DNA from: Candidatus Bipolaricaulia bacterium
GTDB lineage: Bacteria > Bipolaricaulota > Bipolaricaulia > JBHIAT01
Direction of reading: 5' to 3'
Assembly: GCA_046758705.1 (NCBI GenBank)
Contig: JBHIAT010000026.1
Span: 1 to 29,221, forward strand
Length of the DNA stretch: 29,221 bases
Positions 5,481 through 9,273 of this stretch are shown here, piece after piece; within the stretch, counting starts at the first letter, position 1; each line of letters starts with the position of its first letter. The notes under the pieces are model-generated. The model did no database searches and was not told the origin of the DNA. It was given only the letters and a program-made list of their open reading frames with translations. The position numbers and the translations under genes were made by a program.

Positions 5481-6218
5481 TTACTCTTCGACCTCCCCCA
5501 CCTTCGCCCGGTTTCGGACGGTCGCTGCGGTGTCGACCTTCAGCGATTCGCTGTACTCCACCGTCTCTATCTCACAGCCCTCGCCGACCGTCACCCGATT
5601 TCCTCGGACGATCTGTGCACGGGTCGCCTCCAGGTGGATCTCATCCCCTTCGATTGATTCGACCTTTAGACGGCCTGATCCCCGCCCCCAGGGGAACAGG
5701 GAACCGAAAGCGCCTCTTCGCACCGTGATTTTGGAACCTCCGATCTCCCGGACGCTGGAATGGCCTCCGAGATCGATCTCGATCCGGTCGGCGTTAAGCA
5801 ACCCGGCGATGCGGAACGCGCCCTTGGCCTGGAACTGGTCGGCCTCTACATCGCCGCCGACGTTAAACGAGCCAGCGATGTGAATCTGTTCGCCTTTGAG
5901 GTCACGTCCGATCTTCTGAGACCCGCTGCTTTTGAACTGATTGGCCCGGACCTTCCCCTCTACATGCCCGGCGCCAGCCATCTTGAAACTCTGGGCTTCC
6001 ACATCACCGGACACCCGACAGGATCCCGATGTTCGCAACTCCTTCGCTTTAACACTACCCTCGATCTTGCCTGCACCGGAAACAATGACCGTATCAGCCT
6101 CCAGATCGCCCTCCACCCGGCCGGCCCCGGCGATCTTCACCTGTTCATAAACCCCGCCGGTTAACTTGCCCGCACCAGAGATAGTCGCGCTCCCTTTTCG
6201 TTGGCGCTCCTCGTTCAT
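5481..6218 (-). CDS. Polymer-forming cytoskeletal (bactofilin-like, YhbE/YhbF-type) beta-helix protein
   Basis: Repeated I/V-x-G-A/S-G-x-I/V-x-G-x-V/L-x-A units. Start moved to MNEERQ (ATG 6218, SD GGAGGA). Lies downstream of a YhbD-like gene as in Bacillus yhbDEF. Confidence 0.82.
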   Translation of the reverse strand: MNEERQRKGSATISGAGKLTGGVYEQVKIAGAGRVEGDLEADTVIVSGAGKIEGSVKAKELRTSGSCRVSGDVEAQSFKMAGAGHVEGKVRANQFKSSGSQKIGRDLKGEQIHIAGSFNVGGDVEADQFQAKGAFRIAGLLNADRIEIDLGGHSSVREIGGSKITVRRGAFGSLFPWGRGSGRLKVESIEGDEIHLEATRAQIVRGNRVTVGEGCEIETVEYSESLKVDTAATVRNRAKVGEVEE

Positions 6219-6234
6219 CGTCCTCCCCCTTCGG

Positions 6235-6882
6235 TTAGAATTTCTCCTGCAATTTGACCTTGATCTCTTCAAGCGGGCGGTTGAGGTTCACGATCGCAAC
6301 GACCTCCGTGTCAGGGTCGAAGAGACAGGTCGACGAGTACAGTACCGAAAAACTCACCCCGAATCGGCTTGCCACCGCCAGAAACCGATCTTGACCCGCA
6401 TCACCGAACTCGTCAAAACCCTCGATCAGTGTGCGAGTGGCCAGTTCGATCTGATCCCGGGAGAGTTTTCCAACATGAATAAGTTGCTCAACAACTGTGA
6501 GGTAAAGGATTTCGTCGAATCGGTAGACCCCCTCCTGGGACCGTACCGACTCATAGAGATCCCGGACCGCTTCAGAGATCCAGTCCATCATTGCAACTTC
6601 CGAGGCGGTGTAACTCTTGCGAGCCAAGTCCGGCGAGAGCATCTCGGCAATCTCATCGAGAGAGTAATCATCTTTGAGGGACTTGATCCGCTCGATGCGC
6701 TCCAGGATCTTCTCCCGTGGCAGAAACGTCTCCTGGCCGGTGTACGTAGATCGTCGTTCAAACCACACTTCGGGGATCAGGCCCTTGCGTTTCCAGCGGT
6801 AGAACTGACCGTAGGAGATCTTAGTCTGCTCCAGCACGTCTTTTTTGGAGATCGTCTCTTGTTCATCCATCGGGGCGATCAC
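6235..6882 (-). CDS. YhbD/DUF4004 family protein, putative MerR-like DNA-binding
   Basis: ISKKDVLEQTKISYGQFYRWKRKGLIPEVWF.RRSTYTGQETFLPREKILERIERI...KDDYSLDEIAEMLSP. Alternative start ATG 6870. Confidence 0.85.
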   Translation of the reverse strand: MIAPMDEQETISKKDVLEQTKISYGQFYRWKRKGLIPEVWFERRSTYTGQETFLPREKILERIERIKSLKDDYSLDEIAEMLSPDLARKSYTASEVAMMDWISEAVRDLYESVRSQEGVYRFDEILYLTVVEQLIHVGKLSRDQIELATRTLIEGFDEFGDAGQDRFLAVASRFGVSFSVLYSSTCLFDPDTEVVAIVNLNRPLEEIKVKLQEKF

Positions 6883-7365: not shown

Positions 7366-7836
7366 ATGCACATCGCTTTGGGTACAGACCACGCAGGGTT
7401 CGAACTCAAGGAGAAGATTCGGGAGCGCCTGCCTGAGGCGGGTCATGAGGTACAGGATCTGGGGGCTTACACGTTAGAGCCTGGGGACGACTATCCTGAT
7501 TATGCTGCAGCAGTGGCCGAGGCCGTTCGAGCAGGGGAAGTGGACAGAGGGATTGTGGTCTGCGGCAGTGGTGTAGGAGCCTGCGTCGCGGCCAACAAGG
7601 TGCCGGGGATCCGAGCGGCGCTTTGCTCAGACACGTTCACTGCCCGACAAAGTGTCGAGGACGACGACGTCAACGTCCTGTGTCTGGGTGCGCGAGCTGT
7701 GGGACCGGAGCTGGCGTTTGAGATCACCTGGGTGTGGTTGGAGGCTCGTTTCTCAGGAGCCGAGCGCCATCGGCGTCGGTTGGGAAAGGTAGCTGCTCTC
7801 GAACGGCGCTACACATCGGGGAAGAAAACTGCATAG
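7366..7836 (+). CDS. rpiB: Ribose-5-phosphate isomerase B
   Basis: GTDHAGFELK, DDYPDYA, CGSGVG, ANKVPGIRAA, NVLCLGAR, ERHRRR. Confidence 0.95.
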   Translation: MHIALGTDHAGFELKEKIRERLPEAGHEVQDLGAYTLEPGDDYPDYAAAVAEAVRAGEVDRGIVVCGSGVGACVAANKVPGIRAALCSDTFTARQSVEDDDVNVLCLGARAVGPELAFEITWVWLEARFSGAERHRRRLGKVAALERRYTSGKKTA

Positions 7837-7853
7837 ACATGGAGGGAACCGGG

Positions 7854-7937
7854 TGCCGGAGGTGGGAGTCGAACCCACACGGGCATAAGCCCACGGCGCC
7901 CTGAACGCCGCGCGTCTTCCGTTTCCGCCACTCCGGC
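7854..7937 (-). tRNA. tRNA-Leu(CAG)
   Basis: GCCGGAG/CTCCGGC acceptor stem, discriminator A, anticodon arm CGGCG-TTCAGGG-CGCCG, long variable arm, T arm GTGGGTTCGACTCCCAC. 3' end reads ACCC, so CCA is not fully encoded. Confidence 0.97.
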
Positions 7938-7957
7938 GAATCGATGTTTGTCGTGGT

Positions 7958-7987
7958 ATTTTATCTATCATCAACTCGATTTGTCAA
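7958..7987 (-). promoter_or_regulatory. tRNA-Leu promoter
   Basis: TTGACA-18-TAAAAT on the minus strand about 20 nt upstream of the tRNA. Confidence 0.75.
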
Positions 7988-8013
7988 GGAATCAGAGGCT
8001 GGCTCCTGTCCTC

Positions 8014-8054
8014 AAAAAGAAGAGTCGTCCAGTCGGGGACGAACTGGACGACTC
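8014..8054 (-). terminator. Intrinsic terminator
   Basis: Perfect 12-bp stem GAGTCGTCCAGT/ACTGGACGACTC (8022-8033/8043-8054) followed on the minus strand by TTCTTTTT. Confidence 0.85.
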
Positions 8055-8240
8055 ACACCTTACTTGGCCGTACGGACTCGAACCGCGTCCTTTAGCTACT
8101 GGGAAAAAACCTCACCGGGGGGCGGTGAGAAAAACCCTGATAGCTGATGGGATTTGAACCCACACTATGGATGCACCATGCAGCGGCCAAGTACTACCCA
8201 AAAGGAGGTTATAACTGCTACGGCTACACGGCCTAGTCCG
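8014..8240 (-). ncRNA. Candidate structured tRNA-like ncRNA, family unassigned
   Basis: TATAAT at 8252-8247 upstream, terminator downstream, no credible ORF, multi-branch fold closed by a perfect 10-bp stem, two T-loop-type hairpins. Confidence 0.6.
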
Positions 8241-8349
8241 TTAGAAATTATACCCCAAACCGGGACTTTTTAGCCCCAGTTTAATTGCCGGATCTCGGTG
8301 TGCTATGTTAGATTTAAATTTGGGTATAATCTCTCAAAGGAGAGGGCTC

Positions 8350-9273
8350 GTGGATCGACAGCCAGTCTTTCTGCTTGTCAACCCGATCGCCGGCAAAGGG
8401 CGGACGCGTCGGCTCTTCCCTCGGATTCAGCGGGCGTTGTCCGACCGGGGGATCCGATTTGAATATCGGTGGACCACCGGCCCGGGGGAGGCAACTGAAC
8501 TCGCTAGAGATGCCGTCGGCGGGGGATTTGAGCGGATTGTCGCCGTCGGTGGGGACGGTACGATCCACGAGGTGGTCAACGGTATTCTGGAGAGGGAAAA
8601 GGAAAAGGAAAAGGAAAGGGAAACAGCCCTAGGGGTGATCCCGACCGGCAGCGGCAACGATTTTGTGAAGTCAGCCGGGATCCCGACCGATCCGTTCCGG
8701 GCGCTTGCTCTGGTCGAGAGTGGAATTGTGACGCGAATCGACGTCGGCCGGATAGGCAACCGCTACTTTGCCAACGGCCTCGGGATCGGCCTCGATGGGG
8801 CTGTGGCGGCACAGATGCGAAACATGCGGCTGCTACGTGGAGAGATCGCTTACCTGTATGCGACGGTGCGGCAGGTGCTGACATTCAAGAATTTTCCGAT
8901 TAAGATTGAGACACCGGAATGGAGCTATCAAGGGCGAAGTCTGCTGTTGGGGCTCTCTAACGGCCGATATCATGGCGGGGATTTCAAGCTCTGTCCGCAG
9001 GCCGCATCCGATGACGGATTGCTCGATCTCTACGTCTTTGAAGATCTGCCAGTGATTCAACGGCTGTGTCAGATTCCCAAAGTCCGCGTCGGTGAGCATA
9101 TGACACTCGAGGTCTTCCACCTCCACAAAACCCCCAAAGCCCGAATCTCGTCTCCCAAACCACTGATCGCCCATATGGACGGCGAACCGATGAGACTGTC
9201 AGGAGAGGCCTTCGAAGTAGAGGCCGTTCCTGAGGCGATTCGGGTCATCACTGAAAGGAGCCGATCGTCTTAA
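8350..9273 (+). CDS. Diacylglycerol/lipid kinase family protein (YegS/BmrU-like)
   Basis: VNPIAGKG, VGGDGTIHEVVNG, IPTGSGNDF, DDGLLD, HMDGE. Start placed at GTG 8350 after GGAGAGGG, with TATAAT at 8325-8330. Confidence 0.92.
   Translation: MDRQPVFLLVNPIAGKGRTRRLFPRIQRALSDRGIRFEYRWTTGPGEATELARDAVGGGFERIVAVGGDGTIHEVVNGILEREKEKEKERETALGVIPTGSGNDFVKSAGIPTDPFRALALVESGIVTRIDVGRIGNRYFANGLGIGLDGAVAAQMRNMRLLRGEIAYLYATVRQVLTFKNFPIKIETPEWSYQGRSLLLGLSNGRYHGGDFKLCPQAASDDGLLDLYVFEDLPVIQRLCQIPKVRVGEHMTLEVFHLHKTPKARISSPKPLIAHMDGEPMRLSGEAFEVEAVPEAIRVITERSRSS
8590..8622 (+). repeat. In-frame GAAAAG hexamer run encoding EREKEKEKERE
   Basis: gagagggaaaaggaaaaggaaaaggaaagggaa. Confidence 0.8.

Follow-up and report, generated by a model that had tools for sequence, protein, structure and literature searches.

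The window, i.e. the whole stretch of 29,221 nt from contig JBHIAT010000026.1 of a Candidatus Bipolaricaulia bacterium that we analysed, was found only in sequencing runs of DNA from hydrothermal-vent metagenomes; a search for runs of RNA that contain it returned none. Between a tRNA-Leu gene and a divergent lipid kinase gene (YegS/DAGK), the minus strand of positions 8241-8014 is a stand-alone small RNA gene, from which transcription of an RNA of about 225 nt is predicted. The original prediction had described an unannotated structured RNA gene resembling a tRNA, and this description was borne out, with no known family matched in the Rfam check. Both strands were read and all of its coordinates were reproduced on the minus strand. 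A strong intrinsic terminator separates the element from tRNA-Leu, which has a promoter of its own (TTGACA-N18-TAAAAT, 7987-7958) and is the only gene called by the tRNA finder ARAGORN in the window. At the loci of other copies the neighbours are unrelated, the downstream gene in other genomes is often convergent, and ARAGORN found no tRNA in 14 of these loci. Hence, the proximity to tRNA-Leu is incidental.

Folding energy cannot decide on the strand, as both strands fold equally well: the minus strand reaches −92.1 kcal/mol compared to −68.1 ± 5.0 kcal/mol for 200 shuffled sequences (z = −4.8; none of the 200 as low), and the plus strand yields a comparable z of −5.6. We chose the minus strand, to which the element had been assigned before, because the homologs and the T-loop sequence agree on it, as do the −10 box and the terminator. 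The TATAAT box claimed at 8252-8247 is present on this strand, but no −35 match lies beside it and a sigma-70 promoter scan does not call it; boxes resembling TATAAT or TAAAAT also occur upstream of the paralogs. The claimed terminator with a U tract was recovered by a terminator scan as a 13-pair stem (8054-8022), and at the equivalent position each paralog has a hairpin-plus-U terminator as well. The claim that the element holds no credible open reading frame held as well, since the short frames overlapping it are not conserved and the closest paralog has a 1-nt indel within a 32-aa minus-strand frame (alignment A4). The features are listed below, with A2 and A4 denoting a model-fitted and a structure-blind alignment, respectively.

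8247-8252, minus strand: −10 box TATAAT, read from the sequence, without convincing −35; the transcript would start near 8241
8194-8241, minus strand: 5' leader, including GUAGCCGUAG (8227-8218), shared exactly with part of the helix-45 region in the genome's 16S rRNA
8202-8209, minus strand: anti-Shine-Dalgarno motif ACCUCCUU, identical to the 3' tail of the genome's 16S rRNA (..GAUCACCUCCUUUCU)
8184-8193, minus strand: 5' strand of closing helix P1, UACUUGGCCG, pairs with 8061-8070
8172-8182, minus strand: P2 hairpin UGCA-UGG-UGCA, resembling a D arm, its loop containing GG, sequence near-invariant
8169-8171, minus strand: Px 5' strand UCC, pairs with GGA at 8088-8090 and closes the inner junction
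8147-8163, minus strand: variable hairpin P3, GUGGG-UUCAAAU-CCCAU; stem covaries at 5 of 5 pairs, loop sequence not conserved
8094-8145, minus strand: invariant arm with base helix AGCUAU/GUAGCU
8137-8135 and 8103-8101, minus strand: GGG of the arm paired with CCC, invariant in A2 and A4
8134-8130 and 8110-8104, minus strand: internal loop of the arm, U5 opposite G+U6
8129-8123 and 8117-8111, minus strand: tip helix of the arm, CUCACCG/CGGUGAG, covaries at 5 of 5 pairs
8122-8118, minus strand: apical loop of the arm, CCCCC
8088-8090, minus strand: Px 3' strand GGA, partner of UCC at 8169-8171
8072-8086, minus strand: T arm GCGG-UUCGAGU-CCGU, loop fitting the tRNA T-loop consensus UUCRANY
8061-8070, minus strand: 3' strand of P1, CGGCCAAGUA, pairs with 8184-8193
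8014-8054, minus strand: intrinsic terminator from the terminator scan, 13-pair stem 8054-8022 followed by the U tract UUCUUUUU

Fold and covariation

Our analysis shows a fold in which P1 encloses a four-way junction of P2, Px and the T arm, with Px leading to a second junction formed with P3 and the invariant arm. Covariation supports this fold. In A2, which comprises 33 sequences, 94.0% of cells are paired compared to 33-50% in slid controls, and 33 of 39 pairs show changes on both sides, a result matched by none of 500 shuffles. The 20 sequences of A4, aligned by MAFFT blind to structure, still have 91.3% of cells paired (slid controls 35-47%), with both sides changed at 22 of 37 pairs. 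In a first MAFFT alignment RNAalifold missed the closing helix due to a register shift of one column, so that the structure was then set by hand.

The perfect 10-bp closing helix foreseen at 8061-8070/8184-8193 is formed by UACUUGGCCG with CGGCCAAGUA, and P1 changes on both sides at all 11 modelled pairs in A2 and at 10 of 13 in A4. Its length varies from 10 to 15 bp with a T stem of 4 bp, compared to 6-7 and 4 bp in a divergent form that we call the core type. For P2, Px, the GGG/CCC pairs and the T arm, support comes mainly from invariance rather than from covariation. The small hairpin expected within the closing helix is P2 (8182-8172), which covaries only among distant members (e.g. GACA-AGG-UGUC), and the UCC/GGA of Px is replaced by CCC/GGG in paralog C145 and by GCC/GGC in the core type.

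Two T-loop hairpins had been proposed, and both sequences are present (8163-8147 and 8086-8072), but only the latter is a conserved T arm. The former is P3, the loop of which reads UUCAAAU, CUCAAAU, ACAGAAA or UUAGAAUA in the four close copies of this genome and which appears as a longer stem with a GNRA cap in family f4. Within the T arm, 100% of cells are paired in both alignments. A T-arm-like hairpin 3' of the arm was detected in 54 of the 92 members we collected, most commonly with the loop UUCGAAU (30) or UUCGAGU (13), a share that is biased upward since the model used for gathering includes the T arm. The remaining 38 members lack any T arm; where it is present, it is near-invariant together with the GG hairpin. 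The long arm with its U5/U6 internal loop and 7-bp tip was likewise found as anticipated (8146-8093). It combines a U-rich internal loop stacked on three G-C pairs with a C-rich or CCUCC-bearing tip above. This motif is found in 86 of the 92 members, with U tracts of 4 and 5 nt in 72 of these 86 arms.

The anti-Shine-Dalgarno motif and the spread of the family

The 3' end of the 16S rRNA of this very genome reads ..GAUCACCUCCUUUCU, which contains the motif of the leader. Among the 92 members, CCUCC is present in 90 and ACCUCCU in 72, and on the sense strand CCUCC occurs 165 times compared to only 20 occurrences of GGAGG. The motif changes its position within the RNA, being located in the leader of 55 members, in the arm of 40 and in the tail of 37. 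As a fixed structural element would not move, this mobility argues for a pairing seed. A search for targets in the own genome yielded ribosome-binding sites complementary to the leader of the window copy over 11-14 nt (e.g. AAGGAGGUUAUAAC-cc-AUG), all of them generic matches with no specific target standing out. Since the motif is complementary to the Shine-Dalgarno sequence, such matches are to be expected in any case, and one match of 14 nt is about what we estimate to arise by chance in this genome (roughly 1). Predicted accessibility of CCUCC gives a mixed picture: on average, the motif is unpaired with a probability of 0.38 in the window copy, compared to 0.77, 0.53 and 0.23 in the three paralogs.

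The own genome contains four close paralogs, including the window copy, and a fifth, distant single-copy relative of the core type. BLAST found the element at three places in this genome and had matches in 7 out of 41 genomes, this one included, while our covariance model R1 recovered all five places. With R1, 151 genomes of the class yielded 70 with a match (E ≤ 1e-3), and in the phylum sample, likewise of 151 genomes, 58 matched at E ≤ 1e-5. The RNA is present in most families sampled, with up to 8 copies in some genomes; it is rare in family f5 and was found in none of the 55 genomes of family f3 (E ≤ 1e-5). A pattern scan of all prokaryote species returned 80 loci, 22 of which were confirmed by R1, and 20 of these 22 belong to metagenome-assembled genomes of Bipolaricaulota, Acetothermia, Fraserbacteria or (mislabelled) Thermotogae. 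In viral contigs the same kind of scan gave eight matches, none of them confirmed by the model. Two weak model matches in Acidobacteria (25-27 bits) are located inside a conserved coding region and were rejected as chance. The element thus belongs to a modular superfamily of small RNAs that is spread through the phylum Bipolaricaulota (Acetothermia) and absent from Rfam.

Two further ideas on the core type were considered and discarded. Some of its copies have an open frame, one even with a Shine-Dalgarno sequence plus ATG, but other copies are interrupted by in-frame stops and the frame of the shared CAACCUCCUU differs from copy to copy, which argues against a coding function. Pairing of its invariant GAGGGAAACC tail with the U-loop arm is not supported either, as the tail is unchanged in the core-type locus L053, the arm of which has no U tract.

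The Bipolaricaulota (Acetothermia, formerly OP1) are known nearly wholly from metagenome-assembled genomes. A literature search on small or structured RNAs of Acetothermia/Bipolaricaulota, covering papers without their supplementary files, gave no paper on regulatory RNAs of the phylum, and a search for prior descriptions of the element returned nothing specific. A covariance model derived from the present alignments would allow annotation of the RNA across several hundred genomes.

Possible modes of action

What, then, could a tRNA-like RNA that copies the 16S rRNA tail be good for? The best explanation, to which we assign a probability of roughly 55%, is that the RNA acts in trans by masking Shine-Dalgarno sites and presents its seed on a tRNA-like scaffold. 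ACCUCCUU and the other C-rich motifs would pair in trans with the AAGGAGGU Shine-Dalgarno regions of mRNAs, and the paired RNA would compete with the 30S subunit and reduce translation initiation. A tRNA-like elbow may arise from docking of the T loop on the GG loop and, together with the U-loop arm, could provide a rigid scaffold that is nuclease-resistant or protein-binding, while paralogs under separate promoters might supply condition-specific doses. If the RNAs indeed mask ribosome-binding sites, they could form a layer of global translational control peculiar to this phylum. A search of the genome for Hfq found no gene, which counts against such a mechanism. Antisense pairing also does not account for the most conserved parts of the RNA, namely the U-rich loop, the GGG/CCC pairs, the T loop and the GG hairpin, which suggests a protein or tertiary partner.

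In an alternative that we hold to be unlikely, mRNA pairing would be secondary. Here, ACCUCCUU (or AUCACCUCCUU in some members) would mimic the 16S tail so that a factor binding or processing this tail would be titrated away, or the elbow would dock the RNA on a partner recognising tRNAs, e.g. the ribosome, RNase P or the CCA-adding enzyme. The identity with the 16S tail exceeds CCUCC, with a match of 9 nt for the window copy, extended to 11 nt (AUCACCUCCUU) in family f4 and some further copies; the leader of the window copy has GUAGCCGUAG in common with the helix-45 region, and the invariant T, GG and U loops resemble recognition surfaces. However, a fixed protein-binding mimic would not be expected to shift among leader, arm tip and tail with variable flanks as this motif does, and the 10-nt helix-45 identity is already missing in C196, a paralog with 85% identity. 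The acceptor-like helix and the T stem, with 10-15 and 4 bp or 6-7 and 4 bp in the core type, do not add up to a 12-bp stack, and no gene linked to the RNA suggests itself as a candidate partner.

A second alternative addresses the invariant arm and appears quite improbable to us, even though it is compatible with masking of Shine-Dalgarno sites. U-rich internal loops of this kind form triple helices in viral and eukaryotic RNAs. By analogy, the arm might be a bacterial counterpart of the ENE, an element known to stabilise eukaryotic and viral RNAs, with the U-rich loop clamping an A-rich strand (U.A-U) and A-minor contacts to the GGG/CCC pairs. Candidates for this strand would be a poly(A) tail, the leader of an mRNA or a stretch within the RNA itself, and the RNA clamped in this way would be stabilised or captured. 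The sections on ENEs in PMC7583470 describe a stem-loop whose internal loop is rich in U and lies next to G-C pairs; in MALAT1 and MEN-beta such an element neighbours a tRNA-like structure. Our element shares with the ENEs of KSHV PAN and of MALAT1/MEN-beta (with mascRNA) an internal loop of 4-6 U per strand placed directly on three G-C pairs, and with the latter two a tRNA-like structure in the same transcript. The prevalence of the U tracts and the invariance of GGG/CCC fit this analogy, as does the observation that ribosome-binding sites complementary to the leader of the window copy often have A runs upstream (e.g. CAAAAGGAGG). In contrast to the known ENEs, the element is bacterial, its arm is located inside the tRNA-like junction instead of upstream of it, and no A-rich partner was found for it. 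No conserved A-rich tract was seen within or beside any member, although a partner acting in trans or a tail added post-transcriptionally would be invisible in DNA. The core-type locus L053 (family f5) has ordinary pairing in place of the U loop with the rest of the RNA kept, tandem U.U pairs or a protein site would account for this conservation, nothing in Rfam, whatever the type of family, matched the region, and two reviews, in the parts devoted to ENEs, describe no bacterial example. Should the U loop bind A-rich RNA after all, ENE-type RNA stabilisation would extend to bacteria.

Combining these ideas leads to a speculation in which we place little credence: the arm may be the first bacterial ENE-type clamp, built on a tRNA-like scaffold with a 16S-tail copy, so that mRNAs would be captured in two ways at once, with ACCUCCUU forming Watson-Crick pairs with the Shine-Dalgarno sequence while a U.A-U triplex would hold the neighbouring A-rich leader or an A tail. 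As part of this speculation, the family might descend from a fragment of an rRNA operon comprising the 16S 3' end and a spacer tRNA.

Comparison with known RNA families

Rfam 15 contains no family that reaches the threshold, neither in the window (gathering mode) nor at positions 7700-8500 in E-value mode. The loci of 12 relatives gave no match in gathering mode, and 12 matches of the core-type locus L045 in E-value mode were all well short of threshold. The tmRNA, RNase P RNA and SRP RNA of the genome are located elsewhere. We conclude that the element belongs to a large, uncatalogued family and is neither a tRNA nor a Y RNA nor a 6S RNA.

The element resembles a tRNA (RF00005) in its four-way junction, its UUCRANY T loop (UUCGAGU), a GG hairpin at the position of the D loop and the cloverleaf order of its helices, which runs P1, GG hairpin, Px, P3, arm, T arm and P1', with the T arm immediately before the 3' strand of P1. 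These traits, together with a weak match of the Rfam tRNA model at 8139-8227, could point to a tRNA with a giant variable arm, be it an unusual decoding one or a pseudogene, and the original prediction had offered a cloverleaf with a CAA anticodon as one of its readings. We regard this as very improbable. The match scores 23.3 bits, below the threshold of 29, and relies on pairing that is not kept in the paralogs, ARAGORN is silent both here and in the 14 loci of other copies, and the supposed anticodon loop is not conserved. Unlike in a tRNA, the closing helix extends to 10-15 bp and continues into the 5' leader and the 3' tail, no discriminator or CCA is conserved, a 3-bp helix opens a second junction where the anticodon arm would be, the T stem has 4 bp, and 38 of 92 members manage without a T arm.

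Equally hard to uphold is a divergent 6S RNA, which had been suggested for the plus strand, or a cis-acting element, either leader or trailer, that belongs to tRNA-Leu or the lipid kinase gene. The position between these two genes would be suitable, and the 6S RNA of the genome is unaccounted for, as the Rfam 6S model (RF00013) matched nothing across the entire genome. However, 6S RNA is a rod with a central bubble while the element is branched, all strand signals are on the minus strand, and there are 4-8 copies per genome; regarding cis action, the terminator and the separate promoter stand before tRNA-Leu, and the other copies have unrelated neighbours and no tRNA.

In YrlA RNAs the tRNA-like module is circularly permuted (T arm, closed acceptor-like arm, D arm) and a Ro60 (TROVE) gene is usually adjacent. 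A bacterial Y RNA of the YrlA type (RF02553) working with Ro60, the other reading offered originally, shares the tRNA-like module and its place inside a longer small RNA that a terminal helix closes, but can be dismissed almost entirely as the helix order is that of an ordinary, unpermuted cloverleaf, the Rfam YrlA model gave no match in 7700-8500 at E ≤ 10 nor in the whole genome, and PF05731 (TROVE) had no match in this 93.9% complete genome while control genomes were positive.

With the tRNA-like domain of tmRNA (RF00023) the element has in common that the anticodon-stem position of the junction leads to a large extra domain. It lacks the tag reading frame, the CCA end and the pseudoknots, ARAGORN calls no tmRNA in the window, and the canonical tmRNA of the genome was found at C29:22162-22523 with 175.6 bits. 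The C-rich motifs of the alphaproteobacterial ar14/ar15 RNAs ('CCUCCUCCC') and of RsaE/RoxS from Firmicutes can mask ribosome-binding sites. As in those RNAs, pyrimidine-rich CCUCC motifs are placed in leaders, loops and tails, and the 3' domain of L045 even has a weak ar14 (RF02344) match (22.5 bits, threshold 58.8). The window copy has no such match, and where ar14-type RNAs consist of simple hairpins, the element has a large conserved scaffold with several junctions. It unites a rare combination of features: a tRNA-type junction with T loop and GG loop, an internal loop that is rich in U, and a copy of the anti-Shine-Dalgarno tail.

A predicted small RNA gene on the minus strand

Direct reading of the sequence (plus strand, 7700-8600; minus strand, 7990-8340) recovered every feature of the original prediction, which had proposed a tRNA-mimic RNA with two T-loop hairpins at 8014-8252, in its place on the minus strand.

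Features of the element and neighbouring genes
8252-8247, minus: -10 box TATAAT (sequence)
8209-8202, minus: leader motif ACCUCCUU (sequence)
8193-8184 with 8070-8061, minus: closing helix P1, perfect 10 bp (sequence)
8182-8172, minus: small hairpin P2, UGCA-UGG-UGCA (sequence)
8163-8147, minus: hairpin P3, GUGGG-UUCAAAU-CCCAU (sequence)
8134-8130 and 8109-8104, minus: U5 and U6 of the long arm, around a 7-bp tip helix with a CCCCC loop
8086-8072, minus: T arm GCGG-UUCGAGU-CCGU (sequence)
8054-8022, minus: 13-pair terminator stem, then a U tract (terminator scan)
8305-9273, plus: YegS/DAGK-family kinase
7366-7836, plus: RpiB
5481-6272, minus: bactofilin

The terminator scan bears out the terminator. 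The TATAAT has no -35 box and was therefore not called by the promoter scan. Since the minus strand (z = -4.8 against 200 shuffles) and the plus strand (z = -5.6) fold comparably stably, the element was assigned to the minus strand from its -10 box, terminator, T-loop sequence and homologs. A look-up of sequencing runs that contain this stretch returned no RNA-seq run. A second terminator-like hairpin of 13 pairs (8255-8284, minus) lies directly upstream of the TATAAT, before the divergent kinase gene.

ARAGORN's only call in the window was tRNA-Leu(CAG), a class II tRNA at 7852-7937 on the minus strand (47.2 bits). It has a near-consensus promoter of its own (TTGACA-N18-TAAAAT, 7987-7958, minus; promoter scan) and its transcription is therefore independent of the small RNA upstream. 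As ARAGORN found no tRNA at 14 loci of other copies, this adjacency is peculiar to the window copy; likewise, none of the kinase, RpiB and bactofilin genes recurs beside other family copies. At several relatives' loci the downstream gene is convergent, and the element is not cis-acting. Nor is it coding: overlapping ORFs are short, and a 1-nt indel between the two closest paralogs falls inside a 32-aa minus-strand ORF.

Distribution and fold of the RNA family

BLAST against 41 genomes returned three places in the own genome, namely the window copy and its paralogs on contigs C196 (85% identity to it) and C145 (77%), together with matches in 6 relatives of the same class. The covariance model R1, built from ten aligned copies with a structure set by hand, matched five places in the own genome, namely the window copy (C26), C196, C145, C177 and, more weakly, C122:8790-8907. 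Across the class, 70/151 genomes matched at E <= 1e-3, with up to 8 matches per genome; by family, these were 18/18 in f4, 17/19 in f6, 9/9 in f7, 4/4 each in f8 and f9, 3/3 in f11, 10/47 in f5 and 2/44 in f3. At E <= 1e-5, a phylum-level sample gave 58/151 genomes, all from the element's class, with f5 at 8/43 and f3 at 0/55. In families other than these two, the small RNA is nearly universal. The pattern CAGGGTTTT-N12-42-TTTTTYCCCAG, scanned against one genome per prokaryote species, hit at least 80 loci. Among the matches listed, R1 confirmed 22/80, 20 of them in records of Candidatus Bipolaricaulota, Acetothermia, Bipolaricaulia, Fraserbacteria or 'uncultured Thermotogae' MAGs; the other two, weak and inside a coding region of Acidobacteria, were dismissed as chance. 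Viral contigs yielded 8 matches to the same pattern, none confirmed by R1. Several subfamilies (e.g. at loci L196-L200, L033, L045, L219 and L222) carry a conserved CYGCGGGARAGGG about 8-12 nt upstream of a -10-like box, perhaps a site for a regulator or sigma factor that they share; the window copy has no such motif upstream.

From 5' to 3', the window RNA comprises a leader, P1, P2, Px, P3, the arm, the 3' strand of Px, the T arm, one A, the 3' strand of P1, 6 nt and the terminator. P2 is a hairpin of 3-4 bp with a GG loop, Px is UCC/GGA, and the arm consists of a base helix, GGG/CCC, the U-rich internal loop, the tip helix and a C-rich loop. Homologs support this fold by covariation. In a model-fitted alignment of 33 sequences (A2), 94.0% of cells were paired against 33-50% with partners slid, and both sides changed at 33/39 pairs, values reached by 0/500 shuffles. 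Because A2 is biased towards its own model, the count was repeated on A4, in which MAFFT aligned 20 copies with a T arm blind to structure; this gave 91.3% against 35-47%, with both-side changes at 22/37 pairs. Strong covariation marks P1, P3 and the tip helix. P2, Px, GGG/CCC and the T stem hardly vary and are therefore supported mainly by conservation, although Px appears as UCC/GGA, CCC/GGG or GCC/GGC and P2 of one distant copy reads GACA-AGG-UGUC. Of the two predicted T-loop hairpins, that at 8086-8072 is a true conserved T arm; the P3 loop shows no sequence conservation, so the hairpin at 8163-8147 is a variable one whose loop just happens to be UUCAAAU in the window copy. The helices do follow cloverleaf order, yet a cloverleaf with a CAA anticodon-like loop, the first reading proposed, is not supported, given this variable P3 loop, a Px of only 3 bp that leads into a second junction, and a P1 that ranges from 10 to ~15 bp among members.

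We inspected 92 distinct members gathered with R1, a sample biased towards T-arm copies. The arm motif occurs in 86/92 (with U tracts of 4 and 5 nt in 72/86) and a T-arm-like hairpin 3' of the arm in 54/92.

Types within the superfamily
Window type: a leader carrying ACCUCCUU, a long P1 and an arm tipped with CCCCC or CCUCC
Core type: single-copy where seen; spread across families; own-genome copy on C122
Further types: P1 and arm kept, T arm replaced by other hairpins
Minimal type: arm directly enclosed by P1 (L082, L120)

The core type (~270 nt; C122:8790-8907 on the plus strand, L045, L055, L047 and others) has a tRNA-like domain with an acceptor-like helix of 6-7 bp (GUCCGUG/CAYGGGC), an invariant GAGGGAAACC 3' of this helix and, in the large apical loop of its arm, CAACCUCCUU. 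An outer helix P0 pairs the 5' leader (..GAUGAUCGCUCAYAGGAGGG..) with CCCUUCU and covaries (AGGAAGA/UCUUCCU, AGGAGGG/CCCUUCU, AGAAGGG/CCCUUCU, AAGAGGG/CCCUCUU, CGAAGGAACUG/CAGUUCCUUCG); the 3' tail ..GGUUGCUAACCUCAUU precedes the terminator. In the C122 copy, an additional GNRA hairpin separates the T arm from the helix's 3' strand. A coding reading of this type was rejected: the frame is open in some copies but has in-frame stops in others, and CAACCUCCUU falls in different frames. At L045 (1-2304) and L055 (2934-5200), the RNA lies just downstream of genes for a PAS-HisKA-HATPase histidine kinase and a 143-aa stand-alone receiver (Pfam), and ORFs at L056 and L054 match these, as judged by size and order alone. 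Elsewhere its neighbours are MutS2 (one locus) or a solute-binding protein and a DtxR-type repressor (own genome).

A movable copy of the 16S rRNA tail

The own-genome 16S rRNA ends in ..GGAUCACCUCCUUUCU, hence the leader motif is a copy of the anti-Shine-Dalgarno tail; the match spans 9 nt for the window copy and, in family f4, 11 nt (AUCACCUCCUU). Of the 92 members, 90 have CCUCC in sense orientation (165 occurrences vs 20 of GGAGG) and 72 have ACCUCCU; relative to the arm, CCUCC is upstream in 55 members, internal in 40 and downstream in 37. Besides the arm, this movable copy is the sole feature common to nearly all members. At 8218-8227 (minus), the window leader also contains GUAGCCGUAG, a 10-mer present in the 5' strand of 16S helix 45 (own-genome contig C39, near 15320), upstream of the shared ACCUCCUUU; this 10-mer is absent from the 85%-identical paralog, and the identity may be coincidental or a remnant of an origin from an rRNA operon end.

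The simplest reading of these sequences is a trans-acting RNA that would pair with AAGGAGGU ribosome-binding sites and compete there with the 30S subunit. Genuine ribosome-binding sites of the own genome include some with 11-14 nt of complementarity to the window leader (e.g. AAGGAGGUUAUAAC-cc-AUG on C108; CAAAAGGAGGUU-N-AUG on C79 and C197). However, this evidence is weak: the motif by itself would produce such matches, and by our own estimate one 14-mer match is about what chance provides. Predicted CCUCC accessibility is mixed (0.38 in the window copy vs 0.23-0.77 in paralogs), and pairing leaves the most invariant parts, i.e. the U loop, GGG/CCC, T loop and GG hairpin, unexplained. The T loop and GG loop presumably dock as in the tRNA elbow, with the arm serving as a recognition or stability module.

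By analogy, the U-rich loop could form an ENE-type triple helix, to which we give a low probability. The loop of this kind in KSHV PAN RNA engages in five U.A-U and three A-minor triples, and that in MALAT1 and MEN-beta adjoins a tRNA-like structure cut by RNase P (PMC7583470). The elements described in the consulted sections of PMC7583470 and of a 2026 review (PMC13541005) come from viruses, from vertebrate long noncoding RNAs and from transposons of plants or fungi, with none from bacteria. Two observations speak against a triple helix here: no A-rich partner proved to be conserved, and the U-rich loop has been lost from one core-type copy (L053, family f5).

Comparison with known RNA families

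At Rfam 15 gathering thresholds, only tRNA-Leu was matched in the window. At E <= 10, 7700-8500 gave two further matches: the tRNA model at 8139-8227 (23.3 bits vs the required 29), in which GUAGCCG pairs with CAGCUAU and P3 stands in for the T arm, and a meaningless one on the terminator hairpin. The 6S, YrlA and tmRNA models had no match there, and 12 relatives' loci gave none to Rfam. The own genome (93.9% complete) has no match to Rfam YrlA or 6S RNA, TROVE/Ro60 or Hfq. The suggested YrlA-type permuted fold is thus not supported, given the helix order and the lack of YrlA and Ro60 matches, and neither is a 6S RNA on the plus strand, given the missing 6S matches and the minus-strand signals. 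Genes for tmRNA (C29:22162-22523), RNase P RNA (C29:23008-23365) and SRP RNA (C40:2310-2409) were found elsewhere in the genome, so the element is none of these three disguised. The former two are adjacent on C29 (22162-23365), on the same strand and ~500 nt apart.

Likeness to tRNA, the tRNA-like domain of tmRNA and YrlA is limited to the T-loop junction, and the element fails the defining tests of all three. We found no description of this RNA family in the main texts of the papers searched, and our verdict is that it is new. Small RNAs with an anti-Shine-Dalgarno seed are exemplified by the alphaproteobacterial ar14/ar15 CCUCCUCCC RNAs and RsaE. The ar14 model scored the core-type relative at 22.5 bits vs the 58.8 needed; the element would work like such RNAs without belonging among them. 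Most likely, the family is a structurally novel regulator of a kind resembling these known anti-Shine-Dalgarno-seed small RNAs.
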